From Abyssalbus ytuae (GTDB taxonomy: Bacteria; Bacteroidota; Bacteroidia; Flavobacteriales; Flavobacteriaceae): a stretch of DNA of 64,000 nucleotides. The notes below the pieces were generated by a model that saw nothing but the letters and a program-made list of their open reading frames with translations, had not been told where the DNA came from and ran no database searches. Shown here one piece after another: positions 10,620 to 55,328 of the stretch. The stretch's first letter is position 1, and each line of letters starts with the position of its first letter. Both the position numbers and the translations under genes were made by a program. The stretch is from assembly GCF_022807975.1 (NCBI RefSeq), contig NZ_CP094358.1, positions 4,124,171 through 4,188,170 on the forward strand, read 5' to 3'.

Positions 10620-10870
10620 TTAAAGGAAACTTTTGTGGTTACCCACAAAACGGCAGACACTTTTTTTGCTCCATGCTTTTCTGAGCGAAGGCGGGCTCCT
10701 TCGCTAAAACAGTACTTCCCTTCACCTATTCTGCCTAAAGGGAGGTTATAGAATAGAGGGTAGATGTGTTTATTTGTGTAATCGGTTATTTGTTGATTTT
10801 ACACTTTGTGCTTTTTTAGATTTCTCAGTCGCCTTGCAGGCTCTTGCCAAAATGACTGCATAACACAGGG
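10620..10870. repeat. Diverged solitary copy of the repeat family that forms the 13.1-19.2 kb arrays.
   Basis: It shares gttacccacaaaacggcagacacttttttt...ctattctgcctaaagggaggtt...gtaatcgg.tatttg.tgattt.acactttgtgcttttttagatttctcagtcgcctt with the array modules. Confidence 0.6.
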
Positions 10871-13138: not shown

Positions 13139-13140
13139 TT

Positions 13141-14310
13141 GGAATTTTTGCGTTTTTTCCAGTGTCTTTTTTTGTTTATTAATAAGGTTCGGGGGAACCA
13201 ACCTGTGTGGATGTGCTATTCTATGATGTTTATTTTGTCTTGATACAAAATGAACCAACCCGCCCGAACGTGCCGTTCGGTACGGGCGGGAAAGGCTAGG
13301 CTGTCGGAAGTGTCTTTAAATTTTTTGTTTGCTTTTTTAGATTTCTCAGTCGCCTTACTGGCTCTTGTCGAAATGACCTCGCAAAAGGGAAGAATAACAA
13401 AACCGGGAGACTGTATAGCTGGAATTTTTGCGTTTTTTCCTGTATCTTTTTTTGTTTATTAATAAGGTTCGGGGGAACCAACCTGTGTGGATGTGCTATT
13501 CTATGATGTTCATTTTGTCTTGATACAAAATGAACCAAAAAATCAAGAACATTTTAAGGAAATTTTTGTGGTTGCCCACAAAACCACAGACACTTTTTTT
13601 CGCTCCATGCTTTATCCTACTTTGCAGGATGCACTTCCGCTCAAAGTGCTGTTATTTCTGGAAAATGTTCGGGGATGCTTCGCATTTTTTGTTGTCGCAA
13701 AACCGGCTTGCAAATTCCGCGTCGCTGTACTCCTGAATCCCGGAGTTTTGCTAAGCCTATTCTGCCTAAAGGGAGGTTTTGTAATAGGGGTGATGTGTTG
13801 AATCGTGTAATCGGGTATTTGCTGATTTGACACTTTGTGCTTTTTTAGATTTCTCAGTCGCCTTACTGGCTCTTGTCGAAATGACCGCGCAAAAGGGAAG
13901 AATACCAAAACCGGGAGACTGTATAGCTGGAATTTTTGCGTTTTTTCCTGTATCTTTTTTTGTTTATTAATAAGGTTCGGGGGAACCAACCTGTGTTGAT
14001 GTGCTATTCTATGATGTTCATTTTGTCTTGATACAAAATGAACCAACCCGCCCGAACGTGCCGTTCGGTACGGGCGGGAAAGGCTAGGCTGTCGGAAGTG
14101 TCTTTAAATTTTTTGTTTGCTTTTTTAGATTTCTCAGTCGCCTTACTGGCTCTTGTCGAAATGACCTCGCAAAAGGGAAGAATAACAAAACCGGGAGACT
14201 GTATAGCTGGAATTTTTGCTATTGCATAACCGGCTTGCAAATTTCGCGTCGCTGTACTCCTGAATCCCGGAGCTTTGCTAAGCCTATTCTGCCTAAAGGG
14301 AGATTTCGCC
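13141..14310. repeat. Tandem repeat array A. It is a mosaic of about 280 bp modules carrying a GC hairpin and a roughly 500 bp module, and begins 3 bp after the arsB stop.
   Basis: The string ggaatttttgcgttttttcc recurs at 13141, 13421 and 13921. The hairpin module cccgcccgaacgtgccgttcggtacgggcggg occurs at 13262 and 14046. Modules are near-identical. Confidence 0.9.
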
Positions 14311-17150: not shown

Positions 17151-17204
17151 ATAGATTCTTTCATAATATTTGGGTTGTTGTAATAATTGGCATTAAAAAG
17201 GGAG

Positions 17205-19230
17205 GAATTTTGGCTATTGCATAACCGGCTTGCAAATTTCGCGTCGCTGTACTCCTGAATCCCGGAGCTTTGCTAAGCTTATTCTATCTAAAGGGAGGTT
17301 TTGTAATAGGGGTGAATGTGTTGAATCGTGTAATCGGGTATTTGTTGATTTGACACTTTGTGCTTTTTTAGATTTCTCAGTCGCCTTACAGGCTCTTGTC
17401 GAAATGACCGCGCAAAAGGGAAGAATAACAAAACCGGGAGATTGTATAGCTGGAATTTTTGCTATTGCAAAATTAGTTTGCAAATTCCGCGTCGCTGTAC
17501 TCCTGAATCCCGGAGCTTTGCTAAGCTTATTCTATCTAAAGGGAGGTTTTGTAATAGGGTTGATGTGTTGAATCGTGTAATCGGGTATTTGCTGATTTGA
17601 CACTTTGTGCTTTTTTAGATTTCTCAGTCGCCTTACAGGCTCTTGTCGAAATGACCGCGCAAAAGGGAAGAATAACAAAACCGGGAGATTGTATAGCTGG
17701 AATTTTTGCTATTGCATAACCGGCTTGCAAATTTCGCGTCGCTGTACTCCTGAATCCCGGAGTTTTGCTAAGCCTATTCTGCCTAAAGGGAGGTTTTGTA
17801 ATAGGGGTGGATGTGTTGAATCGTGTAATCGGGTATTTGCTGATTTGACACTTTGTGTTTTTTTAGATTTCTCAGTCGCCTTACAGGCTCTTGTCGAAAT
17901 GACCGCGCAAAAGGGAAGAATAACAAAACCGGGAGATTGTATAGCTGGAATTTTTGCTATTGCAAAATTAGTTTGCAAATTCCGCGTCGCTGTACTCCTG
18001 AATCCCGGAGTTTTGCTAAGCCTATTCTGCCTAAAGGGAGGCTTTGTAATAGGGGTGAATGGGTTGAATCGTGTAATCGGGTATTTGTTGATTTAACACT
18101 TTGTGGTTTTTTAGATTTCTCAGTCGCCTTACTGGCTCTTGTCGAAATGACCGCACAAAAGGGAAGAATAACAAAACCGGGAGACTGTATAGCTGGAATT
18201 TTTGCGTTTTTTCCAGTGTCTTTTTTTGTTTATTAATAAGGTTCGGGGGAACCAACCTGTGTGGATGTGCTATTCTATGATGTTCATTTTGTCTTGATAC
18301 AAAATGAACCAAAAAATCAAGAACATTTTAAGGAAATTTTTGTGGTTGCCCACAAAACCACAGACACTTTTTTTCGCTCCATGCTTTATCCTACTTTGCA
18401 GGATGCACTTCCGCTCAAAGTGCTGTTATTTCTGGAAAATGTTCGGGGATGCTTCGCATTTTTTGTTGTCGCAAAACCGGCTTGCAAATTTCGCGTCGCT
18501 GTACTTCTGAATCCCGGAGCTTTGCCAAGCCTATTCTGCCTAAAGGGAGGTTTTGTAATAGGGGTGAATGGGTTGAATCGTGTAATCGGGTATTTGCTGA
18601 TTTGACACTTTGTGCTTTTTTAGATTTCTCAGTCGCCTTACAGGCTCTTGTCGAAATGACCGCGCAAAAGGGAAGAATAACAAAACCGGGAGATTGTATA
18701 GCTGGAATTTTTGCGTTTTTTCCTGTATCTTTTTTTGTTTATTAATAAGGTTCGGGGGAACCAACCTGTGTGGATGTGCTATTCTATGATGTTCATTTTG
18801 TCTTGATACAAAATGAACCAAAAAATCAAGAACATTTTAAGGAAATTTTTGTGGTTGCCCACAAAACCACAGACACTTTTTTTCGCTCCATGCTTTATCC
18901 TACTTTGCAGGATGCACTTCCGCTCAAAGTGCTGTTATTTCTGGAAAATGTTCGGGGATGCTTCGCATTTTTTGTTGTCGCAAAACCGGCTTGCAAATTC
19001 CGCGTCGCTGTACTCCTGAATCCCGGAGTTTTGCTAAGCCTATTCTGCCTAAAGGGAGGTTTTGTAATAGGGTTGATGTGTTGAATCGTGTAATCGGGTA
19101 TTTGTTGATTTAACACTTTGTGCTTTTTTAGATTTCTCAGTCGCCTTACAGGCTCTTGTCGAAATGACCGCGCAAAAGGGAAGAATAACAAAACCGGGAG
19201 ATTGTATAGCTGGAATTTTGGCTATTTTTT
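17205..19230. repeat. Tandem repeat array B, made of four modules of about 247 bp followed by two modules of about 510 bp.
   Basis: gctattgca recurs at 17211, 17458, 17704 and 17952 (period 246-248 bp). ggaatttttgcg-initiated long modules start at 18197 and 18707. This is the same family as array A. Confidence 0.9.
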
Positions 19231-21671: not shown

Positions 21672-22284
21672 TAAATAAAATTCAATTCAATTACTGTTTG
21701 TAAATGTTAGAGTTTAATAATTTAGGTTGGCTATACACCAATTTGCTATGATGTTATTTGAATGATAATATTTATCATTATATTACTTTGCTTGGGTAAA
21801 AGTGAGAGTTACATTTGCTGATTTACTTTAAAAAGTTTTCTTCTGCAAAGCTACTTTTACAAAGTTTAATGGAACAATCCTTACACGAAACGACGGTAGG
21901 AGAGTAGTGTAATGCGTGTGGTATGGGAATATGTTACAAAATTAGATGCTTTTTGCTTCAGTGTAAGGCTCCCTAAAAACCGAACTGTTTAAAAATAGAA
22001 AATAGTTTTAGACTTAACCCAACTTCTTCATATAAGATTTTTCCTTATTTATAACAAAAGTTGCGTTTATGCACCCAATTTTGGGTGAGTAAACACAATT
22101 AATAAAGTTTATATATATTTAGCGGTCAGCAGATAAATCCACTATTCTGAACAAAACAGATAACGCTAAAATCCGAATATGCGTATTCGTCAATTGTCAT
22201 ATTTGCCAATTATAATTCTTTTCTTTATATTTGCACCATAACTTTAAAAGTGGCGACAACACTATAAATGCGGTACAAAATGTT

Positions 22285-23804: not shown

Positions 23805-23939
23805 AAATAAAAATTAAATATTAACAAAATGCCGAACCGCTAACACTGGCTCATGAGTAATTGCTGCTAATGGTTAAGCTTAAGATGTTTTCTTTCAAAT
23901 CTCTCACAGTTTCTATCTTTATTTCCTTAAATAGCGGTG

Positions 23940-24415
23940 GGGCGCGGCACTTTTACATAGCGACAAATTATGGAACAAATGAACTGAGAATTCCATATTG
24001 TTGACGATATAAAACACTGCGTGTTGTTATATCTACAATTATATCAAATACGCGGTATTCGCCGTTTTACTAAAAAACATTATTTTTGAATGATAATGTT
24101 CTGCGTTATGTAACTTGAGCTTTGGTAAAAGCAGGACAGAGCGTTAAGAAAAGGTCTGGTAGACCTTTTTAGCGAATGAGCCAGATGGCACTTAAACAAA
24201 CTACAGTTTCTTTAAAAAAATTTTGCTCCAAAAGTTTCTTCTACAATGTTAATGAAATCAAAAATAAGCCGAAGGCAAATATTTTTGATTCATGAACACC
24301 TCTAAAACAATATATATTTTGTGAATAAACACTTTTTATGCGACGAGTTTACACTGAGCAAAGTCGAAGTGTAGGAGGGAAGTGTAATGGGTGGGGAATG
24401 GGATTATTCCCCTTT
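23940..24415. repeat. Composite intergenic repeat (families R2 + R1), the longest copy.
   Basis: The part shared with 49220-49445 and 54945-55215 is ttgacgatataaaacactgcgtgttgttatatctacaattatatcaaatacgcggtattcgccgttttactaaaaaacattatttttgaatgataat. The R1 part, gacgagtttacactgagcaaagtcgaagtgtaggagggaagtgtaatgggtgggg, is shared with 21845, 38160, 49395 and 50310. Confidence 0.8.
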
Positions 24416-24491: not shown

Positions 24492-26855
24492 ATGCAGACA
24501 GGTTTTTTTGCTTACGGCTCACAAATTCCTTCAAGTGGTGAGTGTATAGAAGAAGCGATCAAAATTATTAATAATGATGATAACGATGTGAAAATTGAAT
24601 CTTGGAGAAATTTGAAAGTATCTGGGTCATTAATAATTTCTAATATATTAGCTTCAATAAATAAATCTGATTTCTTCTGTGCAGATCTGACAGGGCTTAA
24701 TGATAATGTCTTATTTGAAATAGGATATGCTTTAGCAAAAGGTAAACCTCTTTATTTAATTAATGATACTACACAAGAAGAATCTTCAAGGAGATTTAGA
24801 GAATTAGGTCTTTTGTCTACTGTTGGATATTACCCATACACTAACACACAAAATATTGTTGATGGTTTTTATAGAATGACACCTTATGATCCAGTTGATA
24901 AATATTGGGAGGAACTGACTAAAACTTTACCAAATGATATAGAAAGGAAGGCTCTTTTAGTTTTAAATAGTCAGGTAGAAACAAATTATAATCTTGAAAT
25001 AATTAATCAAGTAGAATTTTTTAATCTACCAAATATTGTAGATGATGCTAGTGAAAGTATAGTTCAACCTATTAGTTGGTATATTGAGCAATTATATTCT
25101 GTACCAGCTGTTTTAGTACAATTCTCTTCACAGGCTAGATCAGGGTATGAAATTCATAACTCTAAATGTGCTCTTGTATCTGGAATTGCATTGGGTCTAG
25201 GATTAAAGCTTCAAATGATTGCTGAAAAACCTTATGGAGTGCCAATGGATTATAAGGAACTCCTTAAAAAATTTAGTAATAGAAAAGAGTGTGCTTTAAT
25301 AGTAACAAATTACTTAGGTGAATTAAGAGATGAAATAGCCTCTTTACTTATAGATAGTGATAAAAAAACAATTGAGAGGAGAACTAGAAGCGAACTCCAA
25401 AATGTCAATTTTGGTGAGGCGATTGCTGAGCACGAAAGTAATAATCTTTATGAATATTATGTGGATACATATCACACTCAACAACTAATTAAAAATGAAT
25501 ATAATATCGTAATTGGAAGAAAAGGTTCAGGGAAAACAGCAACGCTTTATTATTTAAAAGAAGACTTAGCCAGAGATGTAAGGAATAATGTGATACTAAT
25601 AAAGCCAATAAATTTTGAGGTTGATGGATTAATTTTACTTATGGAGGAATCTAATAGTGAATTTGAAAAAGGTTTTTTAATAGAAACAATTTGGAAGTTT
25701 CTGATATATACAGAAATTGCTAAATATTTATATTCAAAAACAAAAGATAAACCTCTCTATGCATTGACTGATGTTGAAACAAAATTTATAGACTTCATCG
25801 AAAAAAATAAGGCTATATATCTTACTGATTTCTCAACGAGGTTAGAAGAACAAATAAAAATTCTAAAGGAAAATAATATAAAAGATATTGGTGCAGGAAA
25901 TAATAAAGAATTTAGGTTAAAAGTTTCAGAGTTGCTTCATCAAAGTTCTATTTATGAAATGAAAAAGTATTTTGGTGATTTAATCCCTAAGAAACATAGG
26001 CTGATAGTACTTATTGATAACTTAGATAAGTCCTGGCGCAAAGATTCCAAAATTAATATTCTTAGCAAATATATACTTGGATTATTAGGGGTTTCAGGTC
26101 GGATTTTTCAAGAGTTATCTTATATAAAATCAACGAATAAAAATATTGCATTTCATCTTACTATATTTCTTAGAAGTGATATTTTCAAGCGTGTAATTTC
26201 TTTTGCGAGGGAGCCTGATAAAATTGAAGTTTCTAGATTAAAATGGGATGATCCAGAGATTTTGTTTAGAATTGTAGAAGATCGTTTTACTCAACTAAGT
26301 AAAGGGAAATATACTGGAGATGATCTTTGGGAAAAGTTTTTCGTGAAAAAGGTAAAATCTATGGATACTAAAGAATATATAACTAATAGTATTTTTCCAA
26401 GACCTAGAGATATAATTTATTTTTTCAAAACCTGTAAGGATATTGCTATTTCTAGGGGGCATAATATTATAGAAGAGAATGATGTTATTTCTGCTCATAC
26501 AGATTATTCAAGTTGGGTTTTCAAGTCAGTTTTAGTAGAAAATGGAATTACTTATAAACAGATGGAAGATTTTATGTATGAATTGATGACTAGTAATGAA
26601 ATCATAAGCATAGAACAAATAAATGAAAAGATGACTAATGCTAAAATACTTAATCATGACTCGGATGATCTAGATAGGTTTATTGATCATTTGGTAAATT
26701 TAACAATTATTGGAAGAGAAACAGAGAAAGGCAAATTCAGTTTTGAGTATGATGTAGATAATGCAAAAAAAATCAAAATATTGTCTAAAAAATTAGATTC
26801 CAATAGATTTAAAATTCATCCGGCGCTAGTACCATATTTAGAATGTAAAACCTAA
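24492..26855 (+). CDS. Candidate anti-phage defense protein. It fuses an N-terminal nucleoside 2-deoxyribosyltransferase-like or TIR-like domain to a central P-loop NTPase, with a C-terminal helical region.
   Basis: The N-terminal segment FFAYGS...FFCADLTGLNDNVLFEIGYALAKGKPLYLI matches the deoxyribosyltransferase/TIR-like signature. Walker A is IGRKGSGKTA, at about residue 345. Walker B-like is LIVLIDNLDKSW. It is flanked by an HNH nuclease and by repeats. Confidence 0.55.
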   Translation: MQTGFFAYGSQIPSSGECIEEAIKIINNDDNDVKIESWRNLKVSGSLIISNILASINKSDFFCADLTGLNDNVLFEIGYALAKGKPLYLINDTTQEESSRRFRELGLLSTVGYYPYTNTQNIVDGFYRMTPYDPVDKYWEELTKTLPNDIERKALLVLNSQVETNYNLEIINQVEFFNLPNIVDDASESIVQPISWYIEQLYSVPAVLVQFSSQARSGYEIHNSKCALVSGIALGLGLKLQMIAEKPYGVPMDYKELLKKFSNRKECALIVTNYLGELRDEIASLLIDSDKKTIERRTRSELQNVNFGEAIAEHESNNLYEYYVDTYHTQQLIKNEYNIVIGRKGSGKTATLYYLKEDLARDVRNNVILIKPINFEVDGLILLMEESNSEFEKGFLIETIWKFLIYTEIAKYLYSKTKDKPLYALTDVETKFIDFIEKNKAIYLTDFSTRLEEQIKILKENNIKDIGAGNNKEFRLKVSELLHQSSIYEMKKYFGDLIPKKHRLIVLIDNLDKSWRKDSKINILSKYILGLLGVSGRIFQELSYIKSTNKNIAFHLTIFLRSDIFKRVISFAREPDKIEVSRLKWDDPEILFRIVEDRFTQLSKGKYTGDDLWEKFFVKKVKSMDTKEYITNSIFPRPRDIIYFFKTCKDIAISRGHNIIEENDVISAHTDYSSWVFKSVLVENGITYKQMEDFMYELMTSNEIISIEQINEKMTNAKILNHDSDDLDRFIDHLVNLTIIGRETEKGKFSFEYDVDNAKKIKILSKKLDSNRFKIHPALVPYLECKT

Positions 26856-26914
26856 AGAAAAGGTAAGTTGAACCTATATATTATGTAAAATAGAACTTCA
26901 ATTTTTGGTAATGG

Positions 26915-27050
26915 CCTCAGAAAACTTTATTCATTTCATTCTTAATTGTTTTTTAAAGGAATTCATGAATCTTGAATTCGCAAGCTCATTCTGCGATTTG
27001 GTTAAAACAATCCGCCTTCGTTTCACAACGTCGGACAAGTAGGTGAGTGG
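26915..27050. repeat. Intergenic repeat of family R3.
   Basis: cctcagaaaactttattcatttcattcttaattgttttttaaaggaattcatgaatcttgaattcgcaagctcattctgcgatttgg...caatccgccttcgtttcacaac.tcggacaagtaggtgagtg. Near-identical at 44195-44330. Confidence 0.85.
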
Positions 27051-27477
27051 AGCGGTCATATTTTAGGGCATGGTAAATGCAATTATCCAGTGGATGATAG
27101 TATTTAACAGTGAGCTAATGCGGCTGGTTAACTTCAATCACCAGCGCGACAAGCCCATCCATCACTAAAAATGTACACTGTACATTTTCTTAACGCTCTG
27201 GAGTCTAAAATATAGTGGAACGAATGTTTTTATTGTTTCCAAAATAGAGAGAGCAGGGTGGAGGGTATAGTTCTCTTTTGAAGATTGTTAATGGAGTTGC
27301 CATGTAAGAAACGCAGAAGAAATTAATAATGAAGAAAATAAAATTCTATATTTGCAGCCTAATTAATTATTAAAAACAAAAAAGTAATATCTATGAGCAT
27401 ACTTAAATTACATAAATCGGGCGCTAAAACGCGACTTTCCAGGTTGATGTTCTAGGTAAAAAACTTTTTAAAAGATA

Positions 27478-27995: not shown

Positions 27996-29387
27996 ATGGG
28001 AAATAAATTAAAGGGGAAAGATCTAATCAAATTAGGTTTTCCCAGAAACAACAGCATCAATATTGCTTTAGGACAGATTAACAGATACTGTAAAAAAGAA
28101 AAGAAAGAAAATATATTGGAAGAAGCCAAAGAAGTGTTATTGGCTCCGGAAAAATTTCGAGGAAATGCTATTTGGGGAAAGGTAGCCGAAGGATTGGTAA
28201 AACCGGTGGAAGTTAGAAGGCATCAACTAAGAAATACAAGAGCTCCGTTTTTAATTTATGGAGAAAATGAGATTGACGAGCAAGCCAAATATCAGTTATA
28301 TGATGCTTTAAAATTACCCATAGCAGTGCAGGGAGCTTTAATGCCAGATGCACATTCGGGTTATGGTTTGCCAATAGGAGGGGTGCTTGCTACCGAAAAT
28401 GCAGTGATTCCTTATGGTGTGGGTGTTGATATTGGTTGCAGAATGTGTTTAACAGTATATCCGATAAAAGCCTCTTATTTAAAAGGGAAACAGCAGCAAT
28501 TGGAAAATATACTGGCAGAGCATACCAAATTCGGAATGAAGGAAACGCATGTTATAAAACACGATCATGAAATTTTTGAACGTGCGGAGTTTCAAGACAT
28601 TCCATTGATAAAAAGGTTGAAAACCAAGGCTTATGAACAATTGGGTACCTCAGGGAGTGGTAATCATTTTGTAGAGTTCGGGATTGTAAATATTACCGAT
28701 GAAAACAATGAATTACAATTACCTACAGGTGATTATGTAGGGTTGTTAACTCATAGCGGAAGCCGGGGTTTGGGAGCCAATATAGCGAAACATTATACTT
28801 ATTTGGCAACTAAGCAATGTCCGTTACCTAAAAATGTACAGCATTTGGCATGGTTGGATTTAAGTACCCATGATGGGCAAGAGTATTGGTTGGCTATGAA
28901 TTTAGCCGGGGATTATGCTAAAGCATGTCATGATGATATTCATAAACGAATAGGGAAATTACTGGGAGCAAAAGCAGTAGCGAAGATTGAGAATCATCAC
29001 AACTTTGCCTGGAAAGAACAAGTAAACGGGGTGGAAAGGATTGTACATAGAAAAGGAGCCACCCCTGCCAATAAAGGTGAGTTAGGAATCATTCCGGGGT
29101 CTATGACAACACCAGGATATATTGTTCGCGGTCTGGGTAATGCCGAAAGCTTAAATTCTGCTTCTCATGGTGCGGGGCGTTTACATTCACGAAGAAAATG
29201 TAAAGAAAAATTTACGAAAAGTGATATTAAACACCAATTGAAATTAAATGATGTAAGCCTTATTGGCGGTGGAATAGATGAGGCGCCTATGGCCTATAAA
29301 GACATTGAAAAAGTAATGGCAAATCAACAAGAACTGGTAGAGGTGTCAGGGACATTTATACCAAAGATTGTAAGAATGGATAAGTAA
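27996..29387 (+). CDS. rtcB: RtcB-family RNA 3'-phosphate ligase, of the PrfH-associated RtcB2 type.
   Basis: Motifs LMPDAHSGYGLPIGGV, GVDIGCRMC and NHHNFAW. The stop is 3 bp from the prfH start. Confidence 0.85.
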   Translation: MGNKLKGKDLIKLGFPRNNSINIALGQINRYCKKEKKENILEEAKEVLLAPEKFRGNAIWGKVAEGLVKPVEVRRHQLRNTRAPFLIYGENEIDEQAKYQLYDALKLPIAVQGALMPDAHSGYGLPIGGVLATENAVIPYGVGVDIGCRMCLTVYPIKASYLKGKQQQLENILAEHTKFGMKETHVIKHDHEIFERAEFQDIPLIKRLKTKAYEQLGTSGSGNHFVEFGIVNITDENNELQLPTGDYVGLLTHSGSRGLGANIAKHYTYLATKQCPLPKNVQHLAWLDLSTHDGQEYWLAMNLAGDYAKACHDDIHKRIGKLLGAKAVAKIENHHNFAWKEQVNGVERIVHRKGATPANKGELGIIPGSMTTPGYIVRGLGNAESLNSASHGAGRLHSRRKCKEKFTKSDIKHQLKLNDVSLIGGGIDEAPMAYKDIEKVMANQQELVEVSGTFIPKIVRMDK

Positions 29388-29389
29388 AA

Positions 29390-30082
29390 ATGAAAACTAA
29401 AATAATACAATTAACATCAGCAAAGGGACCCGTAGAATGTGCCTGGGTTGTAGCTAAAATACTAAAACTCTTCTTAAAAGAATTGACAGGTAATAAAATA
29501 GCCTATGAAATTTTGCATAAAGAAGATGGTTTAGAAAACGGTACGGTACAATCAGTAACTATAAAACTAAAGGGAAAGGAACTTTCGGAATTTTTAGAAG
29601 GTTGGTTAGGTACTATTCAATGGATAGGAACCTCAACTTTCAGGAAATATCATAAACGTAAAAATTGGTTTATAGGTTGTTATGAGTTGCATCAATATCA
29701 ACAAAAAACAATTAGTGAAAGTGAAATTCAATTTCAAGCTATTCGGAGTTCCGGTGCCGGGGGGCAACATGTGAACAAAGTAAGTTCGGCTATCAGAGCG
29801 AAGCATATACCAACAGGGGTTCAGGTTTTGGTGATGGATAACCGTTCGCAGCACCAAAATAAGAAGATTGCTATTGAGCGATTAAAGGAAAAAATTGCTG
29901 ATTATAATACAGGCCAGTTAAAAGAGGCTATAAAAAGTGAATGGGAAAATCATTTGAATTTGGAAAGAGGGAATCCTGTTCGAATATTTACCGGCTCAGA
30001 TTTTAAACAAAACAAAAGGGATAAATCTTTTAAAACGAAACGTAATCAGTTGAAAACCGATTTGCGAAAACAATTAGAATAA
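29390..30082 (+). CDS. prfH: Peptide chain release factor H-like protein (PrfH).
   Basis: GGQ motif (SSGAGGQHVNKV). It is short (230 aa) and lacks the codon-recognition domain, as PrfH does. Confidence 0.8.
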   Translation: MKTKIIQLTSAKGPVECAWVVAKILKLFLKELTGNKIAYEILHKEDGLENGTVQSVTIKLKGKELSEFLEGWLGTIQWIGTSTFRKYHKRKNWFIGCYELHQYQQKTISESEIQFQAIRSSGAGGQHVNKVSSAIRAKHIPTGVQVLVMDNRSQHQNKKIAIERLKEKIADYNTGQLKEAIKSEWENHLNLERGNPVRIFTGSDFKQNKRDKSFKTKRNQLKTDLRKQLE

Positions 30083-30905: not shown

Positions 30906-31007
30906 ACGGGATGGCGGAACTGGCAAACGCACTAGACTGTAAATCTAGCGAAACCGGCATTTTATGCCTCTTTTACCTGCACAGGTTCGAATCCTGTCGA
31001 GGCCACC
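30906..31007 (+). pseudogene. Degenerate class-II tRNA-Tyr(GTA)-like gene with an oversized variable region and non-pairing acceptor strands.
   Basis: D-arm gcggaactggcaaacgc, of the class II type. Anticodon arm ctagaCTGTAAAtctag. T-arm acaggttcgaatcctgt followed by cgaggccACCA. The variable region is about 32 nt and the 5' end gggatgg does not pair with the 3' end. Confidence 0.4.
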
Positions 31008-37982: not shown

Positions 37983-38295
37983 TTTTTAGGAATTATGTAA
38001 ATTGCTTTTACCTAATATCATTGCCGATATAGGGCTAAAGCCTATATATTGTTGTCGCGTTATGTAACTTTGCTTTGGAAGAAAAAGCAATTATAAATAA
38101 CTACTTTCTTTTAGGACTTTTCTTTCCAAAAGTTTCTTTAAAAATATTGGAATACTTTTTATACGACGTAGGAGGGAAGAGGGAATGTGTGTGGAATGGT
38201 TTGTTCTCTCTAATTTCCAATTAATTACGGAATCCCATAATAAGTTAATTATTACAATTTTGTATATTTAAAAAGTATAAAAACACTTTTAAGAA

Positions 38296-38519: not shown

Positions 38520-39137
38520 ATGCACTATAAATTAACACAGGAAATAATAAAACTGAGTGAATCAGATTATTGGCATAGTGCTAAAAATGAATGGAATTTT
38601 GAATATGCATATTATAGCGATGAATTACAAAGATGTCTTTGTGGGCATTATCCAATTAAAAATATCTGTGTCATTAAAAACACCATAAATAATAGACATA
38701 CTGAGGTTGGGAATTGTTGTGTGAATAAATTTTTAGGAATAGATGAAGGAAACAAAATTTTCACATCAATTAAACGATTAAAAGAAGACCCAACAAAAAG
38801 TATGAGTCCAGAAGTTTTGGAGTACTTATTTAATAAAAAGGTATTAACCGACTTTGAATATAAATTTTACTTAGATACAATTAGGAAACGTAAATTTTCT
38901 TATAAACAACTTGAAATACGTAAAAAAATAAATCAAAAGTTAATTGATTTCACGAGTTATGAATCTAACTCTAATTTTTCAAGAATCAATTTAGTATTAA
39001 AATGGGCAGAAGAGAATACTTGGTTTGACACAAGCTTTGTTCATTCTTTGAAGCAGAATTGTGAAAGAAGAGGAAAATTGACCGAAAACCAATCTAAAGC
39101 TCTTGAGAACATAATTAAAAAACTAAAAATTGAATAA
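38520..39137 (+). CDS. Hypothetical protein with a Cys/His cluster.
   Basis: 205-aa ORF. Motif CLCGHYPIKNICVIKNTINNRHTEVGNCCVNKF suggests a possible zinc-binding module. Confidence 0.4.
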   Translation: MHYKLTQEIIKLSESDYWHSAKNEWNFEYAYYSDELQRCLCGHYPIKNICVIKNTINNRHTEVGNCCVNKFLGIDEGNKIFTSIKRLKEDPTKSMSPEVLEYLFNKKVLTDFEYKFYLDTIRKRKFSYKQLEIRKKINQKLIDFTSYESNSNFSRINLVLKWAEENTWFDTSFVHSLKQNCERRGKLTENQSKALENIIKKLKIE

Positions 39138-39194
39138 TTCTTTTCGTATTTAAATTGGAAAAGACAAGAAGCCCTTTCCCAAGGAAAGAACTTC

Positions 39195-40124
39195 TTATGA
39201 TGCTTTACCGTAAAGCTGTATTAATTTTTCTATGTCTATAGATGGATAATGAGATTTTACATAATCCTGAAAATCAATTAAAAAACCACTATAACTTTTA
39301 ACATATTCAATTAATTTATGTTTTGGTTTTCTGTAATGGCTATTAATGTTTTTTATTATAGCTTTTTTAGTACCGTCTTTTAATTCGTTGATAAAACTAT
39401 CATTTCCATCTGTATTTATATTTCCTTCTAAAATATCTTTAGATAAATAGTTGCTAGAAATAAACCAATTATAGTGATTAGTATAAATTCTTTGGCCACT
39501 TGTCAAAAACTGAGGTACTAGAATAATGCATTTTCCTTTGTAATGAGGTAACATAACTTTTTTAGTAACCCATTTTTTTGAAGAATGTTCATAATATTCA
39601 ATTTTGGTTTCTTCGACATCTATACCATATTTTAAACATTGCTGAAATGTAAATTCAGCCAAAATATCTCTACAAACATTTGCTAAAGTGTCCGACATAT
39701 TATCTTGACCAATACCTTTTACTAAAAGTAGTACATTATGAGCTTCATTAGTTACTGTAATTCCTGCTTTAACTAATTTATTAGCTCTTAATGAATCAAA
39801 AATTATTTCAGCTTTTGTTGGTCCAATTCCTTTACCTTTATTATTATAAGAGTAACCTAAATGGTATTCATTAGCTTCTCCTAAATGAGATAAGAAATTC
39901 AATCCGTTATTTCTATCATTAGGAATAATAAATGTTCTATTCAAAATTTCTAAAAAAGATTTACTTCTTACATACATCTTTTTTGCAATCATATTATCTA
40001 AATTATTAGCAATATGATAAGGGTCAATAAATGCTTCTAAATCATTTTCCATTAAAATGTTTAGATGTTCCGTGGTATTACTTTTAATACCGAAATGTTC
40101 GTTAAATGTTTTTAAATGTATCAT
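39195..40124 (-). CDS. Hypothetical protein.
   Basis: 309-aa ORF on the minus strand, AT-rich, with no recognisable motif. Confidence 0.4.
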   Translation of the reverse strand: MIHLKTFNEHFGIKSNTTEHLNILMENDLEAFIDPYHIANNLDNMIAKKMYVRSKSFLEILNRTFIIPNDRNNGLNFLSHLGEANEYHLGYSYNNKGKGIGPTKAEIIFDSLRANKLVKAGITVTNEAHNVLLLVKGIGQDNMSDTLANVCRDILAEFTFQQCLKYGIDVEETKIEYYEHSSKKWVTKKVMLPHYKGKCIILVPQFLTSGQRIYTNHYNWFISSNYLSKDILEGNINTDGNDSFINELKDGTKKAIIKNINSHYRKPKHKLIEYVKSYSGFLIDFQDYVKSHYPSIDIEKLIQLYGKAS

Positions 40125-40219
40125 TTTTTTAATTTTTTAAAATTTATATTCTTATTTTAAATCTGTCCATAAAAATTAATCTATAGACAGATTTTAATTT
40201 TTAATATTTAAGGTTACTA

Positions 40220-40345
40220 TTATTTACCTTTACTATCACTTCTGTTACTTCTCACGTGTGGCTTAACTTTTATTGTTTTACCTCCAACTTTTTTAGTATA
40301 ACCAGGAATTCTGTTGTATTTTCTACCTTCTGAATCTTTTGCCAT
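40220..40345 (-). CDS. Small highly basic protein of 41 aa with a strong Shine-Dalgarno sequence.
   Basis: MAKDSEGRKYNRIPGYTKKVGGKTIKVKPHVRSNRSDSKGK. An AGGAGGTG lies 7 nt upstream of the ATG, which is atypical for Bacteroidota host genes and suggests phage or foreign origin. Confidence 0.4.
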   Translation of the reverse strand: MAKDSEGRKYNRIPGYTKKVGGKTIKVKPHVRSNRSDSKGK

Positions 40346-40477
40346 ATTTTACACCTCCTTTCTAATTTTTTTTAATTATTTATGTAAATTGTTAACCATT
40401 AACCTTCTACATAATACTATTAACTGTAGAAAATAAAAGTTCCCCAAAATGGGGTAAAAAAAATATTTGCGATTAAT

Positions 40478-41128
40478 ATGATTATAGAAGATATTGGCAA
40501 ATTCTTTGAATCCAACTCGAAAAAACTTGATAAAATCAGTAATGTTGAATGGAAGATTGCAATCAAAAAGTGTGAGAAACATTTGTTCTTCAAGCTAATG
40601 AATAAAACAAAGTATGGAGCACATACAGTTGAAAATTTGGGAATACCAGCTAAGGATTATTATTTAGAATATGCTTATTCTAGTATAATTGATGGTTTTT
40701 GGGAATGGAAAGACAGCTTTGACCTTACTGAACAGTTAATAAGAATTATAGATAGTAGAATCTCTACAGTAGTTAAATCGTATAAAAATGCTAAAGAAAA
40801 TGATGAAAAAAGAGAAGAAGAAGGTAAATATCCATTAAAGACAGTAATAAGAAGTCAGGATATCGAAAATACATTTTATAACTTGCGGTCTGAGGACGAA
40901 ATTGATGAAACCGAGCTACTTGCAATAGAAGATGACTATAATAAAATAGAGTTATTTGTAAATGAGAGTAAGGACGATGATATTAAAACGTTTTGGGAAT
41001 GCGCAAAAGAAGGGTATAAAAGAGCTGAAATAGCTGAAATTATGGAAGTAACACCAAAACAACTAGATAAGATTAAAGAGAAATTTTTAAGGCAAACAAG
41101 AAAACAAATCGAGAAAAATGGAAACTAA
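40478..41128 (+). CDS. Hypothetical protein with a C-terminal sigma-70 region-4-like HTH.
   Basis: The C-terminus GYKRAEIAEIMEVTPKQLDKIKEKFLRQTRKQI resembles a sigma/ECF region 4. Confidence 0.35.
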   Translation: MIIEDIGKFFESNSKKLDKISNVEWKIAIKKCEKHLFFKLMNKTKYGAHTVENLGIPAKDYYLEYAYSSIIDGFWEWKDSFDLTEQLIRIIDSRISTVVKSYKNAKENDEKREEEGKYPLKTVIRSQDIENTFYNLRSEDEIDETELLAIEDDYNKIELFVNESKDDDIKTFWECAKEGYKRAEIAEIMEVTPKQLDKIKEKFLRQTRKQIEKNGN

Positions 41129-41519
41129 TAAAGCATTAAAAGCGTTAGATAATCTTTATGGTTTACTATTAGAAATGAATTACCATAAAGAACCAATAGA
41201 TTTTTTAAGTGAAATAGAGGAAGATGATGTTTTTGTTTCTAAACATTTAAGAAATGTTATGCTAAGGCGTTCTAAAACTAAAGCACTCTTAGTACAAAAT
41301 AAGTACAAAAAATTAAGAGAAGAATTTTTACGTCTTAAAGAGTATGGTTTTGAAAAATTACAAGAGCTATTGACCCCAAAAGAAAAAATAGAATTACAAC
41401 CTCTATTTAATAAATTTAAAGAGTTAGAAAAAAAAGATGAAATAGATATCAATGAAGACCAAGATTTTTTAATCTTCATTTCTAAGATTAAAGATAAAAT
41501 TGACGATGATGAATCTTAA
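41118..41519 (+). CDS. Hypothetical acidic coiled-coil protein.
   Basis: 133-aa ORF overlapping its neighbours at both ends. Confidence 0.35.
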   Translation: METNKALKALDNLYGLLLEMNYHKEPIDFLSEIEEDDVFVSKHLRNVMLRRSKTKALLVQNKYKKLREEFLRLKEYGFEKLQELLTPKEKIELQPLFNKFKELEKKDEIDINEDQDFLIFISKIKDKIDDDES

Positions 41520-42282
41520 TAAGTCTCAAGAAGAAGCAAATAAATTATTAGATTCATTAGGATGGGCAAAACCAGGAGATTTAACATTAACAGAAATTGC
41601 TTATGCCTCTAATGCAGATGTGAAAGAGTCAGACTTAGGTGGTTCAAGAGGTCGGATTTTAATGAATGGAGACTCAGCTATAATAACAATAGATTCAAAA
41701 GTCAAATTAGAATCTAAACGAAATTTTATTCTTGCTCACGAAATTGGCCATTTGATTTTGCATAAAAAAATAACGCCTCTTTTTTCAGATACTAATAAAA
41801 CACTAAGCGAATGGTATGCAAAGGGAAAACACGAAATTGAAGCAAATCAATTTGCTTCTGAATTATTAATGCCTAGCCATTTATTTAAGCCAAAAGTTAA
41901 TGGCAAAACATTAACTTTAGATTTAATTAGAGAAACTGCAGATTTTTTTGGAACTTCTCAAACTGCTACTTTATTAAAATATAAGGATTTAGGTGATTTT
42001 TCAGTTTCTATAATCTATATGGAAGATGGTATTGTACAATGGAAAACTGAATCTAACGATTTTCCTTTAAAATTTTTGCAAAAAGGGAGTAATGCTCCAG
42101 AAGGTTCTGTTGCAGGAGACTTCTTTAAAGGTAGAGACTTAGAAGAAGAGCCAATATTAGTAGATGCGATTGAATGGTTCCCTGAAGATTTTGAAATAGA
42201 GAATCATTTAACAACTGAATTGTATGAACATAATTTTAGAATAGGTTCAAACGGATTATTATGCTGTTTATGGATGCAATAA
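41500..42282 (+). CDS. ImmA/IrrE-family (DUF955) metallopeptidase.
   Basis: HEXXH motif in ILAHEIGHLILH, with a conserved ELLMP downstream. Confidence 0.65.
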   Translation: MTMMNLNKSQEEANKLLDSLGWAKPGDLTLTEIAYASNADVKESDLGGSRGRILMNGDSAIITIDSKVKLESKRNFILAHEIGHLILHKKITPLFSDTNKTLSEWYAKGKHEIEANQFASELLMPSHLFKPKVNGKTLTLDLIRETADFFGTSQTATLLKYKDLGDFSVSIIYMEDGIVQWKTESNDFPLKFLQKGSNAPEGSVAGDFFKGRDLEEEPILVDAIEWFPEDFEIENHLTTELYEHNFRIGSNGLLCCLWMQ

Positions 42283-42293
42283 TTTTATTAAAA

Positions 42294-42491
42294 TTATTCA
42301 AGTTTCCCTGTTCCATAATTAACACGCTTCTTAAAGTCAATCACTTCATCTTTTAGTTTCTTATTGGCGTTTTCAATCAATTCATTTTGAAGTTTCATAA
42401 TGCGTAACAAGTCGTGAATAGCATTTAAATTATCTAATTGAGTATATACAATTCTCTCAAGGTCAGCTTTGGTATATTTAGGATATGGCAT
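42294..42491 (-). CDS. Hypothetical small protein.
   Basis: 65-aa ORF between immA and the XRE gene, on the opposite strand. Confidence 0.3.
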   Translation of the reverse strand: MPYPKYTKADLERIVYTQLDNLNAIHDLLRIMKLQNELIENANKKLKDEVIDFKKRVNYGTGKLE

Positions 42492-42685
42492 AAAATTTGA
42501 AATAAAGTTATTAACAATAAAAATTTAAGTTTTAATTGCTTTTATGTAATTTATACTTACATAAAGTTAATTAAAACTTATGATTAAAATTTTAAAAACA
42601 CAAGTTTAGATTACTAAAATTTAATTTAAACTTATATTTTAACAAGAATGTATTTATATATTTAAAATAGAATACATTAATAAAT

Positions 42686-42892
42686 ATGGCATTAGAAAGG
42701 ATAAATAGAATAAAAGAAGTTTTAGTGATTCAAGGCAAATCTCAAGTGTGGCTTGCCGAAGAATTGGGAAAAAGTACAACCTCTGTAACTGCATTTTGCA
42801 ATAATAAATCTCAACCACATTTAAAGGATTTAAAAAGAATTGCAGAAATACTTGATGTAGATATCAGAGAGTTATTAGTTTCTACAAAATGA
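42686..42892 (+). CDS. XRE/Cro-CI family HTH regulator, paralog of 20963-21175.
   Basis: RINRIKEVLVIQGKSQVWLAEELGKSTTSVTAFCNNKSQPHLKDLKRIAEILDVDIRELLV. Confidence 0.8.
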   Translation: MALERINRIKEVLVIQGKSQVWLAEELGKSTTSVTAFCNNKSQPHLKDLKRIAEILDVDIRELLVSTK

Positions 42893-43293
42893 TTGCCTTA
42901 GAGTTTATAAAATCAGAATTAAAAAACCATAACTTAGAATTAAAACCCAAAAACGATGGGAGGGAAGGGGTTGATTTTTTTATAGAAAACTACCAAATAT
43001 ACATACAAACGCTAGATTTAGATACTATAAAACAAAGTGTTAAAATCTCAAAACAAGATTTAGGAGAACTAAAAGACAACTTGTTTATAGCTTTAGTTTT
43101 AATAATTGATAGAGAACCTAGAGTTGTCTATTTAGTACCTTCAAAGCAATTATCACAAGTTGATTCTAATGTTTTTAGGGAGAACGAAGTAACTTTAATG
43201 CCCAGTTTATCTAATTGGGAAATTAGAGTGTCAAGCAATACAATTCCAAAGTTAGCAAAGTATTCACTAGAAAATATGATTAAGGAATTGTAA
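42889..43293 (+). CDS. Hypothetical protein.
   Basis: ORF overlapping the XRE stop by 4 bp. Confidence 0.4.
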   Translation: MIALEFIKSELKNHNLELKPKNDGREGVDFFIENYQIYIQTLDLDTIKQSVKISKQDLGELKDNLFIALVLIIDREPRVVYLVPSKQLSQVDSNVFRENEVTLMPSLSNWEIRVSSNTIPKLAKYSLENMIKEL

Positions 43294-43313
43294 TAATATG
43301 AACGAGTAGGAAA

Positions 43314-44141
43314 ATGATTCCTAATATGCTTATGGTAAGAGAAAAAGGAAATAAAAGTTTTATGAACCTTTCAAAAAAAGAATGTTTAAAGGTTGCAAAA
43401 GAAACTTTTCGGAACGCAGACAGTATGTACAATGATGGAGTACATTTAGCAAAAAATGATTCATTTGGGCGAGCAACATCGTTGTTAATTTTGTCTATGG
43501 AAGAGAATATGAAGGCTCTAATTCTCTATCTGGATGGTAATGGTTTTGAATTTCGAAGTAGAGTTAAAGGAATTAAGAGCTTATTCAATAATCATAAATT
43601 AAGATATCCACTTGCTTTAGTACTTTCTGGTTTTAACATTTTCGGTAAAGATATTAAAGAGATTATTACTAAAATAAAAACAAATCCAACTGAAATACAG
43701 GCTTATATGAGAAGTAAAAATAAATGGGAAAGTCTGGCTAAGGTTTACCTTTTAAAAAAAATTAAACAATTTATTAGCGAGATATTATGGTTTTCAAATG
43801 CGGAATACCTTAGACAAGAAGGAATGTACGTAGACTATGATATTGTTATGAAAACCCCACTTGATATTAACAAACAAGATTATCAAGACGTATACTATAG
43901 GATAAATGGAATGAGGGAATTTATTGTTGATTTTTTGCCTATTTTCGATGAAAGAAATGAAGAAGGTGATTTAGAATTAAAAGCTCATTTAATAAAGTTG
44001 CAAAAAGAACTTATTTCAGAAAAAGGTTATGAAAGAATAGGAGAATTACTATCAAAATTTAATAATAAAAAACTTAATCCACTGGAAGCTCTTTTAGAAA
44101 ATGTTCAAGAGTTAGAAACTGACTTAACGGAAGATTTTTGA
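43314..44141 (+). CDS. Hypothetical protein, possibly an AbiV-like abortive-infection protein.
   Basis: The N-terminal segment AKETFRNADSMYNDGVHLAKNDSFGRATSLLILSMEENMKALILYL is reminiscent of the AbiV helical domain. This is a weak call. Confidence 0.3.
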   Translation: MIPNMLMVREKGNKSFMNLSKKECLKVAKETFRNADSMYNDGVHLAKNDSFGRATSLLILSMEENMKALILYLDGNGFEFRSRVKGIKSLFNNHKLRYPLALVLSGFNIFGKDIKEIITKIKTNPTEIQAYMRSKNKWESLAKVYLLKKIKQFISEILWFSNAEYLRQEGMYVDYDIVMKTPLDINKQDYQDVYYRINGMREFIVDFLPIFDERNEEGDLELKAHLIKLQKELISEKGYERIGELLSKFNNKKLNPLEALLENVQELETDLTEDF

Positions 44142-44194
44142 AAATATGTAAAATAGAAGCAATGAGTTTTTACCCAGATGAAGCGTTGGCAAAA

Positions 44195-44330
44195 CGGCCT
44201 CAGAAAATTTTATTCATTTCATTCTTATTGTTTTTTAAAGGAATTCATGAATCTTGAATTCGCAAGCTCATTCTGCGATTTGGTAAAAACAATCCGCCTT
44301 CGTTTCACAACTTCGGACAAGTAGGTGAGT
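44195..44330. repeat. Intergenic repeat of family R3, second copy.
   Basis: Near-identical to 26915-27050. Confidence 0.85.
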
Positions 44331-44423
44331 GTAAAGCTGTTAATTCTTTCTCCAACCTTGATTTTTTATATCTTTTTTTCTTGATAAAAAAGATATAAAG
44401 TACTTTAGCTATAAACCAACCAT

Positions 44424-45062
44424 ATGAAGAGACTTTTATTTTTTGGATTCATAATTATTTCTTTTTGTTCTTATTCTCAAATATTTGTTGATGACGTTGA
44501 TAGAGTAGCGGTTGTAGTAATAGATTATTGTGTAAATAAAAATGGTAACCGTTATGATATAACTGTCAACCAAGAAAAAAGTACTTATAAGCATGACGGT
44601 TGGCAACAAGGTTGTTTAGAGCATTTTAAAAAAGGTAAATTAATTTATCCAATGAAAATGACAGATGAATGTTGGCAATCGGTTTACTACTTTGTGAATT
44701 CAAAATATAAAACATACGAATTGCCACAAGAAGATCGTATAAAGTGTAAAGCCTTTCATCGCGGGAAATTTAAATATGAGAATCCCGCATATAGTGAAAC
44801 TATAATGAAACGACGCAAAAAAAATCAAATAGAGAAAGGGGGTTTAGGCGGTACACAAAAGTATAAAATAAAGTGGAGGGATGACCACAAGTATCAATTG
44901 GAGGCAATAAAAATGTCTTTAAAAAAGGATAAACACAAAGAAGGAAATCTGATAGAAGTTGAGATTATTGAAATTTTAAATGATAAAACATATTTATACA
45001 AGGCTTATATAACAAACGACGATAACACAGATATTGTATTCGGTTTAATAACTAAAATCTAA
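44424..45062 (+). CDS. Hypothetical secreted protein.
   Basis: Signal peptide MKRLLFFGFIIISFCSYSQ. Confidence 0.45.
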   Translation: MKRLLFFGFIIISFCSYSQIFVDDVDRVAVVVIDYCVNKNGNRYDITVNQEKSTYKHDGWQQGCLEHFKKGKLIYPMKMTDECWQSVYYFVNSKYKTYELPQEDRIKCKAFHRGKFKYENPAYSETIMKRRKKNQIEKGGLGGTQKYKIKWRDDHKYQLEAIKMSLKKDKHKEGNLIEVEIIEILNDKTYLYKAYITNDDNTDIVFGLITKI

Positions 45063-49219: not shown

Positions 49220-49445
49220 AACTACAATTATATCAAATACGCGGTATTCGCCGTTTTACTAAAAAACATTATTTTTGAATGATAATGTTCTTGCGTTATG
49301 TAACTTGAGCTTTGGATAAAAGCGAAAGTCCTTTCTACTATTTTTTGAAAAAATTTAACGCCTAAAGCTTCTTTTCGATGTTAATGGAACACTCTTTACA
49401 CGAAACGACAGTAGGAGAGAAGTGTAATGTGTGTGGAATGGATAA
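49220..49445. repeat. Composite intergenic repeat (families R2 + R1).
   Basis: The R2 part is caattatatcaaatacgcggtattcgccgttttactaaaaaacattatttttgaatgataatgttcttgcgttatgtaacttgagctttgg. The R1 part is ttaatggaacactctttacacgaaacgacagtaggagagaagtgtaatgtgtgtggaatgg. Confidence 0.8.
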
Positions 49446-54379: not shown

Positions 54380-54944
54380 TTATTATGTAAAATAGAACCT
54401 ATAAGTTTAAAACGGCCTCAGAAAACTTTGGAGAAAACAATAGGCAAAGGAGTGTCATATTTTAGAGGGGTAGCAATACATTTTCTTTATTGTGATCAGG
54501 GTTAAAGTTAGTTCTGAACAATCTTAAGACGTTCTAATGTTTTCAAAAATATAGCGAGTGAGCCGTGATTGTTTCCAAACGTTTAATGAAGCCTTGATTT
54601 TTTTGTTTCTTTTTTTATCAAGAAAAAAAGATAATGCACCATTTTAAAAGTGTCGAATTGAAAACAAAATTATAGCAAGTGCTTAGAAATTTGTTCATAG
54701 ACAAATTTTAAGCTGTTGTGGGAATTTACGAGAATGCTCTGAAAAATTTTGGAACGTATATTTCCTTGAATACGCAATTTAAATAAGAAGCTAAAAGCTT
54801 TTGCTTTTTTTGGCGTTGGCAAGCGATGGATAATTATTCGCCAAATTTCTATTTTAAATTAAGGAGCTCATGAATGCTTCGCATTTGTGTGTAAAATAAA
54901 TTGATTTTATAAAACAATCGAGCGCTTGGTAGTGGCAAATTTAC

Positions 54945-55215
54945 ATAGCGACAAATTATGGAACAAATGAACTGAGAATTCCATATTTAAAATTTTAATG
55001 ACCCCAAGTACTGAATATTGTAATGAAATTAAACAGCTTCTGGGATATTTTACATAATAGAGAATTATAGCTAACGAATTAAAAATAAACAAGTCATAAA
55101 ACGGCTGTGACATAATTGTTGACGATATAAAACACTGCGTGTTGTTATATCTACAATTATATCAAATACGCGGTATTCGCCGTTTTACTAAAAAACATTA
55201 TTTTTGAATGATAAT
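54945..55215. repeat. Intergenic repeat of family R2, with an adjacent hairpin.
   Basis: cacttttacatagcgacaaattatggaacaaatgaactgagaattccatatt, also at 23945-24000. ttgacgatataaaacactgcgtgttgttatatctacaattatatcaaatacgcggtattcgccgttttactaaaaaacattatttttgaatgataat, also at 24005-24100. Confidence 0.8.
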
Positions 55216-55328
55216 TTACATTATGTAAAATAGAAAATATTTGAGTGTACTCTATTCTGTATTAAAAAACCGGGAATAAAATATTCTTTATTCCCGGTGT
55301 AATCAAATTAACTTAAAAATACTAATGT

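Follow-up and report, generated by a model that had tools for sequence, protein, structure and literature searches.

For the NDT-like effector of the type II retron Retron-Eco1 (Ec86), which depletes adenine derivatives, both dimerisation and a catalytic Glu are required, and its activity is tied to dimer or oligomer geometry (bioRxiv 10.1101/2023.08.16.553469). It was also reported that TIR-like DUF4062 NADases function in defence (bioRxiv 10.64898/2026.05.01.722283). In addition, NAD+-targeting effectors are predicted to include the DrHyd domains found on STAND, iSTAND, and KAP NTPases (PMC7159879, PMC8195603, PMC9503650), and a 2026 survey describes large C-terminal STAND sensor domains as having at least 400 aa (PMC13581612).

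The gene considered here lies in a 64,000-nucleotide stretch of DNA from the marine flavobacterium Abyssalbus ytuae (the window, that is, the whole stretch of DNA that was analysed). Its product contains an NDT-like domain (N1), a second domain of related topology (N2), and an AAA+ ATPase followed by a lid and a winged helix. By sequence profile N1 belongs to the same superfamily as the retron effector, and it has its putative catalytic Glu in the equivalent helix; however, the retron effector is governed by RT and msDNA filaments, whereas the present protein has a fused ATPase and no RT or ncRNA. The Cap12/Pycsar TIR effectors and Swarozyc (a DUF4062 TIR-like NADase) are triggered by cyclic nucleotides or phage portal and not by a fused AAA+ module, and the sequence of N1 is closer to NDT/DNPH1 than to any TIR.

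The gene is most likely a single-protein defence candidate of the abortive-infection type. The best explanation, to which a probability of roughly 0.55 may be given, is a self-contained immune sensor-effector in which N1 would cleave an abundant nucleotide. This reading is preferred because the putative catalytic Glu and the ATPase motifs are strictly conserved, the design is modular, and experimental precedents exist.

Domain architecture of the Sll1717-family protein

The coordinates of all features are listed in Table 1. The open reading frame was recovered, on the plus strand and with an ATG start, at the bounds originally predicted for a single 787-aa gene, and the motifs pointed out in it were all located in the translation (FFAYGS at aa 5-10, DLTGLNDNVLFEIGYALAKGKPLYLI at aa 65-90, the Walker A sequence IGRKGSGKTA at aa 341-350, and the Walker B-like sequence LIVLIDNLDKSW at aa 504-515). 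The GC content of the gene is ~0.29, compared with 0.35-0.42 for ordinary genes nearby. The protein is a member of NCBIfam NF047389 (P-loop ATPase, Sll1717 family; E 1.6e-87, 294.5 bits versus a cut-off of 75), the full model (positions 1-454) aligning to aa 307-783. NF047389 is an annotation family of unknown function that covers the ATPase, lid, and winged helix and is silent on N1-N2.

Table 1. Features of the gene and its surroundings (positions in the window)
Feature	Position	Strand	Details
U repeat element	23933..24132	+	upstream of gene
Inverted repeat, left arm, 39 nt	24137..24175	.	perfect 16-nt terminus CAGAGCGTTAAGAAAA
Whole gene, 787 aa	24492..26855	+	ATG start; identical NCBI protein 'P-loop ATPase, Sll1717 family [Abyssalbus ytuae]'
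N1, aa 1-135	24492..24896	+	flavodoxin-like domain of NDT/DrHyd-TIR type (predicted)
N2, aa ~150-262	24939..25277	+	second beta-alpha-beta domain (AlphaFold)
Long linker helix, aa 264-304	25281..25403	+	joins N1-N2 module to ATPase (AlphaFold)
AAA+ core, aa ~337-589	25500..26258	+	Walker A G342-T349; Walker B hhhhD509-N-L-D512; sensor-1-like R561 (FLRSD)
Lid helical bundle, winged helix (aa ~691-750), C-terminal helix/strand	26259..26852	+
D repeat element	26879..27049	+	begins 24 nt past stop codon
Inverted repeat, right arm	27162..27200	.	arms bracket gene
PDC-M36A-like gene	39195-40124	minus
CapP-like M78 peptidase	41500-42282
HEPN_AbiV	43314-44141
Gabija	50530-54379

The protein was modelled by AlphaFold as two halves, with family alignments as input. 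In the model of the N-terminal 305 aa (pLDDT 83, pTM 0.87), two tandem beta-alpha-beta (flavodoxin-like) domains, N1 and N2 (the latter at aa ~155-262), are followed by a long helix. A Foldseek search of the PDB with this two-domain model returned mostly generic double-Rossmann proteins (E about 1e-3).

With regard to N1, the single sequence matches Pfam Nuc_deoxyrib_tr (PF05014) with E 4.8e-5 and 23.9 bits, under the gathering threshold of 28.8 bits, and the match recurs in many homologues at 22-27 bits. When a family profile of N1 was compared with the PDB, E was 5e-4 for Rcl/DNPH1 and 3e-3 for NDTs. In the profile alignment, E76 of the FEIGYA motif is aligned with the Glu of YELGRA in Rcl (an E-x-G-x-A helix), and in the AlphaFold model it sits on helix 3 (aa 71-82) behind strand 3 (aa 61-65). 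E76, the putative catalytic Glu of N1, is invariant in 46 sequences and across about ten phyla. W38, N72, and G78 are also invariant, and Y8, G45, D65, T67, N70, F75, and G112 are kept in at least 90% of the sequences. Sequence profiles support N1 as a member of the NDT/DNPH1 N-glycosidase superfamily, sub-threshold on Pfam, and placement in the NDT/DrHyd superfamily is favoured because both the alignment of the catalytic residue and the fold support it.

The original prediction had described the N-terminus as NDT-like or TIR-like. The NDT part is borne out by the family profile, the Glu, and the fold, and the domain was indeed modelled as NDT/TIR-like with a conserved Glu. The TIR part holds by fold and not by sequence models: the predicted fold resembles both TIR and NDT domains, and N1 has the TIR-fold feature of a Glu on the helix following strand C, but Pfam TIR, TIR_2, and DUF4062 gave no match to the query at E <= 1. 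A PADLOC model for CBASS TIR effectors matched the query weakly (E 3e-4).

These features bear on an alternative in which the N-glycosidase would act in defence on phage-specific or damaged nucleotides or on DNA, restricting the phage directly without killing the cell; hypermodified dNMPs would be an example, as in the action of DNPH1 on hmdUMP. Such direct restriction is distinctly unlikely, given that the residues by which Rcl and NDTs bind sugar and phosphate are not conserved in N1 according to the profile comparison, and that NDT-like/DrHyd defence effectors, studied or predicted, target NAD+ or adenine nucleotides.

The region behind N1, taken at first for a spacer of ~200 aa, proved to be the folded and conserved N2 domain together with the linker helix. 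N2 is as conserved as the remaining protein, and its conserved residues include D185, E188, N223, G231, and D253. No relatives of N2 were found in Pfam, and a profile search of the PDB gave spurious designed armadillo repeats only. When N1 and N2 were compared by hhalign with diverse profiles, the match had E 0.0045 and a probability of 8% (E 0.21 in an earlier comparison). The alignment covers the helix-3/strand-4 core, and N2 has a hydrophobic residue where N1 has the putative catalytic Glu. N2 is probably, at low confidence, a degenerate and catalytically dead duplicate of N1, and may serve as an auto-inhibitory pseudo-dimer partner or as a ligand sensor.

The NTPase belongs to the AAA+ proteins of the ORC/Cdc6-STAND assemblage, and the supposed 250-aa helical tail is in fact its lid and winged-helix region. 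It has the STAND/Avs-type combination of an ORC/Cdc6-derived P-loop core, helical lid, and winged helix, and the lid contains an invariant, sensor-2-like P-R-P-R-D motif at aa 636-640. The top structural matches of the ATPase half were the archaeal SSO1545/PABY2304 ATPases and BrxC, not STANDs. The protein ends (aa 787) about 40-100 aa beyond the winged helix, and no repeat family of the TPR, WD40, or LRR type was found in a Pfam scan of the query, whereas Avs1-21, bNACHT, TIR-NLR, and SEFIR proteins carry a C-terminal sensor of this type. The protein also differs from Avs and bacterial NLR-like STANDs by a ~120-aa helical insert (aa ~377-497) that separates Walker A from Walker B. One homologue has an nSTAND3 match of 13.9 bits only, and neither the query nor six other members matched an Avs, bNACHT, or NLR model of PADLOC 2023 (v2). 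The expectation that the layout would be unlike that of the well-known Avs systems agrees with the lack of a PADLOC Avs/NLR match and of a C-terminal repeat sensor. The protein is outside Avs/STAND on two defining features, the large sensor and the HMM match, but judged by its architecture it may work in an Avs/STAND-like manner.

The NTPase had been called STAND/KAP-like; the ORC/Cdc6-STAND part of this description is retained, and the KAP part is not. As in the KAP NTPases (PifA, Tmn), a long insert separates the two Walker motifs of the query, and one homologue (P0053) passes the Pfam threshold for KAP (23.4 versus 20 bits). The query itself has no match to PF07693 and no hydrophobic insert segment, and its fold is AAA+ ORC/Cdc6, so a KAP identity was rejected. 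Unlike the membrane-spanning insert of KAP, the insert of the query is made up of soluble helices and lacks a transmembrane segment; the maximum 19-residue hydropathy of the protein (1.72) is located in N2 and not in the insert.

Distribution and gene neighbourhood

The family is broadly distributed and spreads horizontally. An exhaustive search with aa 300-787 found, at E <= 1e-3, 1,721 clusters (50% identity), 385 of which reach E <= 1e-30. The full N1+N2+ATPase architecture is present in 113 of the 150 best clusters; the others start inside N2 or the ATPase and would look like gene fragments. Among 185,579 species-representative genomes, 74 loci (a pattern-limited lower bound) carry the full-length architecture, with identity down to 23-27%. 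They are scattered in a patchy manner over Bacteroidota, Cyanobacteria, Bacillota, Actinomycetota, Acidobacteriota, Chloroflexota, Desulfobacterota, Verrucomicrobiota, Spirochaetota, and Acetobacteraceae, and full-length copies occur on plasmids of Leptolyngbya, Leptospira, Bacillus mycoides, Rhodococcus, and rhizobia. A 501-aa ATPase-only relative, found on about 200 enterobacterial plasmids, aligns end to end and keeps every motif. Since such ATPase-only relatives exist, N1-N2 behaves as a module added to a pre-existing ATPase switch. With regard to carriage by viruses, INPHARED gave two weak ATPase-only matches and nothing more, and no copy was found in IMG/VR.

The system had been proposed as undescribed. 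It does have an NCBI family name, NF047389, but the 2023 PADLOC models do not cover the family, and literature searches by the name Sll1717, by architecture, and by PF05014 found no paper on it.

When the ORFs within 5 kb of the 74 loci were clustered, no neighbour family occurred in more than five loci, and no Pfam family appeared more than twice among the 125 nearest neighbours. A conserved operon partner was rejected on these two analyses, and the gene is autonomous. Some copies lie beside defence or mobile genes, such as type I R-M with McrBC, an HD-CE/iHD-CE HATPase protein, or an integrase, and a PADLOC scan of the 125 nearest neighbours gave a handful of matches to R-M (type I/IIG) and UvrD-like helicase; many other family copies adjoin housekeeping genes. 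In the window, the HNH endonuclease gene noticed upstream is real (Pfam HNH_3), and as a functional partner it was discarded after phmmer with its product found no relative in 83 related loci. The Leptospira plasmid copy is preceded by an HNH gene unrelated to that of the window.

The original prediction had also placed the gene in one island with Gabija and an abortive-infection module. Both Gabija and AbiV were confirmed, but they occupy another low-GC block, at a distance of 11-24 kb. This island, at 38-55 kb, comprises the Gabija, HEPN_AbiV, CapP-like, and PDC-M36A-like genes, and about 11 kb of ordinary genes (RtcB, PrfH, TPR, SPFH, TetR, ABC transporters) separate it from the gene.

A non-immune role has to be weighed against this background. 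The gene might be an accessory gene of mobile elements, coding for instance for an ORC/TnsC/MuB-like AAA+ that acts in replication, partition, or target selection, or else for a regulated nucleotide-salvage enzyme. A 39-nt inverted repeat, unique in the window, brackets the gene; its role as a conserved mobile-cassette end is not supported, as it was not found in homologous loci. Further, no transposase or replication gene consistently adjoins the family, a strictly conserved N-glycosidase Glu on the ATPase has no obvious use in replication or transposition, and the family is too sparse for housekeeping (at least 74 matches in the genome set above), all of which makes such a role distinctly improbable.

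Signalling systems normally have sensor and effector together in one operon. The lack of a conserved partner gene in the 74 loci thus makes it very improbable that N1 produces a second messenger, as the ThsB TIR does, for an effector elsewhere, or that N2 senses such a signal, even though both signal-generating enzymes and inactive sensors of nucleotides are known from the TIR/DrHyd/SLOG clade (PMC9503650) and N2 retains the polar set D185, E188, N223, and D253 without the catalytic Glu.

A non-coding frame shared with Gabija and AbiV

The long non-coding flanks of the gene recur beside Gabija and AbiV. Two near-identical copies of the upstream element, U, flank Gabija, one ahead of its block (49222-49323, 98%) and one at 55115-55215 (100%); related copies lie at 21757-21926 and 38056, the latter marking the start of the second low-GC block. 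U holds TTTG-N22-TAACTTGA at 24085, which we take to resemble the Bacteroidota -33/-7 promoter consensus. Between U and the gene, a conserved leader at 24340-24412 carries a hairpin and a T-run and might attenuate transcription. Over 140 nt, the downstream element, D, shares 96% identity with 44193-44331, directly after HEPN_AbiV, and it is related to 54381-54429, directly after GajB. D folds no better than shuffled sequence (z-scores -0.25 and -0.6), which does not support a reading of the element as an attC-like hairpin or as a strong terminator.

In Hyunsoonleella ulvae, the homologue with 78% identity is likewise enclosed by the U/D frame (U at position 7782 and D at 10929 of locus L007). 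There the frame also carries an ORF of 136 aa with 71% identity to the window ORF 42889-43293, whose family is highly conserved in Flavobacteriaceae. A specific two-block D pattern was found in 23 marine metagenome contigs, at least seven of which have U 3.3-4.3 kb upstream. The cargo of these contigs is diverse (47 singleton ORF families) and includes a second GajA+GajB pair (contig L085) and, accompanied by a partner gene, a double cytosine-methyltransferase (contig L086). The frame is not exclusive to defence, because one D copy follows the housekeeping gene ppsA. Taken together, the shared frame is additional, moderate evidence that the gene shares one exchangeable accessory pool with Gabija and AbiV.

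Proposed mode of action and significance

For the preferred reading, a single-protein sensor-effector, the following scheme is proposed. Briefly, in the resting state the AAA+ module of ORC/Cdc6-STAND type would hold the protein monomeric or closed, with N1 inactive; the silencing of N1 might be achieved by the dead copy N2 covering the surface used for dimerisation in the NDT family. An infection cue, either a phage protein or a nucleic acid, would be sensed by the ATPase, via either its helical insert or the winged-helix/lid region, and ATP-dependent oligomerisation would then gather the N1 domains. Glu76 would cleave an N-glycosidic bond, with NAD+ as the most likely substrate and adenine nucleotides or dNMPs otherwise, and the resulting nucleotide depletion would halt phage replication at the expense of the cell.

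A more ambitious combination, in which the Sll1717-type family would be a widespread one-gene immune system and the U/D frame a platform for defence cassettes, is rather unlikely as a whole. With regard to sensing, it would have a minimal ORC/Cdc6-like AAA+ with the winged helix as its sole sensor detect phage nucleic acid or a replication intermediate. The switching step would consist of a tandem NDT/pseudo-NDT N-glycosidase module being activated by rearrangement of an intramolecular pseudo-dimer. The platform itself would be a shared, exchangeable expression frame, the U promoter/leader element lying upstream and D downstream, in which marine Flavobacteriaceae carry this gene, Gabija, AbiV, and R-M genes.

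The gene is a credible, widespread single-gene defence candidate and is less novel than originally proposed. Effectors fused to NTPase switches follow a principle that is firmly established, and the present case therefore extends prior knowledge and overturns none. If validated, it would represent a compact defence family of ~790 aa across many phyla that, judging by PADLOC 2023, is lacking in current defence-finder libraries, as well as a tractable model for the gating of an NDT-type N-glycosidase by a minimal ORC/Cdc6-like ATPase without a repeat sensor. The tandem active/dead NDT pair could reveal how dimer-dependent nucleotide-cleaving effectors stay silent, and the U/D frame hints at exchange and co-regulation of defence genes in Flavobacteriaceae and may be used to find systems that are still unknown.

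The inverted repeat and leader around the target gene

The arms of a 39-nt inverted repeat, which match perfectly over their 16-nt termini (CAGAGCGTTAAGAAAA), lie on either side of the target (the 787-aa gene encoding an NDT-like domain and an AAA+ ATPase). This repeat occurs only once in the 64-kb window, where the chance expectation is 0.02 matches, and it was not found in the loci homologous to that of the target. An inversion site, an excision site, and chance are all possible explanations. Positions of this and the other features are listed in the table.

Ahead of the start codon of the target, a leader segment (24340-24412) is conserved and is common to other copies of the upstream non-coding repeat (U). 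The copy at the target terminates in a GC-rich hairpin and T-run (24393-24412) approximately 80 nt upstream of the start codon, which could represent an attenuator inside a 5′ UTR of about 370 nt.

With regard to plasmid-borne relatives, an ATPase-only protein related to the Sll1717-type module, annotated as "hypothetical", is encoded on a Klebsiella pneumoniae plasmid and on ~200 further enterobacterial plasmids (Klebsiella, Escherichia, and Enterobacter), close to the replication region. It retains every motif, with 22% identity end to end.

Features discussed in this part (window coordinates unless a locus or accession is given)
Feature	Position	Strand	Remark
Tandem repeat array	17204-19230		Related copies at 10620-10860 and 13140-14306
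U copies	21757-21926, 23933-24132, 38056-38070, 49222-49441, 54861-55228		Non-coding repeat
39-nt inverted repeat	24137-24175, 27162-27200		Arms flank target
D copies	26879-27049, 44193-44331, 54381-54429		Non-coding repeat
RtcB	27996-29387
PrfH-like RF-1 domain protein	29390-30082
tRNA-like match	30912-30997	+	Rfam, 35.8 bits, model positions 8-63, 86 nt
PDC-M36A-like gene	39195-40124	-
Small ORF ahead of CapP-like gene	41118-41519
CapP-like M78 peptidase	41500-42282		PADLOC capP, E 9e-60
Small ORF, 134 aa	42889-43293		Member of ~136-aa family
HEPN_AbiV	43314-44141
ABC/AAA_21-type ATPase, 243 aa	46168-46899	-	Between AbiV and Gabija
U and D, Hyunsoonleella ulvae	L007:7782 and 10929, respectively
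~136-aa family member, H. ulvae	L007:10458-10865
ATPase-only relative, 501 aa	NZ_CP084857.1 (L081):3656-5161		K. pneumoniae IncF plasmid

Other elements of the window

The array comprises four copies of a 248-nt tandem repeat (94% identity), and longer units (~510 nt) carry it on to about 19.2 kb, with dispersed copies upstream. The ORFs listed over the array and its related copies are probably spurious. Shortly 3′ of the genes for RtcB, the PrfH-like protein, and a TPR protein lies a tRNA-like match that was not called by ARAGORN; it could represent a tRNA-like RNA associated with the repair module of RtcB, or else what is left of an att site.

The second low-GC block (38520-45062) contains the genes for the CapP-like peptidase and HEPN_AbiV and the PDC-M36A-like gene. 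Several ORFs in it have no family, and the small ORF ahead of the CapP-like gene is possibly CapH-like. The 243-aa ATPase matches mad3 in PADLOC (E 1.4e-22), with weaker matches to AriA and AbiLi; a further defence system, of which it would be a component or a remaining fragment, may therefore lie between AbiV and Gabija.

The U/D repeat frame

In the A. ytuae genome, the unrelated defence cassettes (AbiV, Gabija, and the target as a candidate) are bracketed by the U and D repeat families, as is the target homologue in another genus (H. ulvae). U contains a promoter-like motif and the conserved leader, and D directly adjoins the stop codons. D was also detected in 23 marine metagenome contigs (L084-L106), whose varied cargo includes a further Gabija system as well as an R-M-like pair; in one contig, however, D comes after ppsA. 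The final gene ahead of D is often the ~136-aa small ORF (L085, L094, L095, L099, L101, L102, and L105), whose family shows 63-76% identity across many Flavobacteriaceae genera (367 hits), has no Pfam domain, and is labelled DUF4365 in some UniRef entries. The U/D frame may serve as a platform for the expression or exchange of defence cassettes in Flavobacteriaceae.
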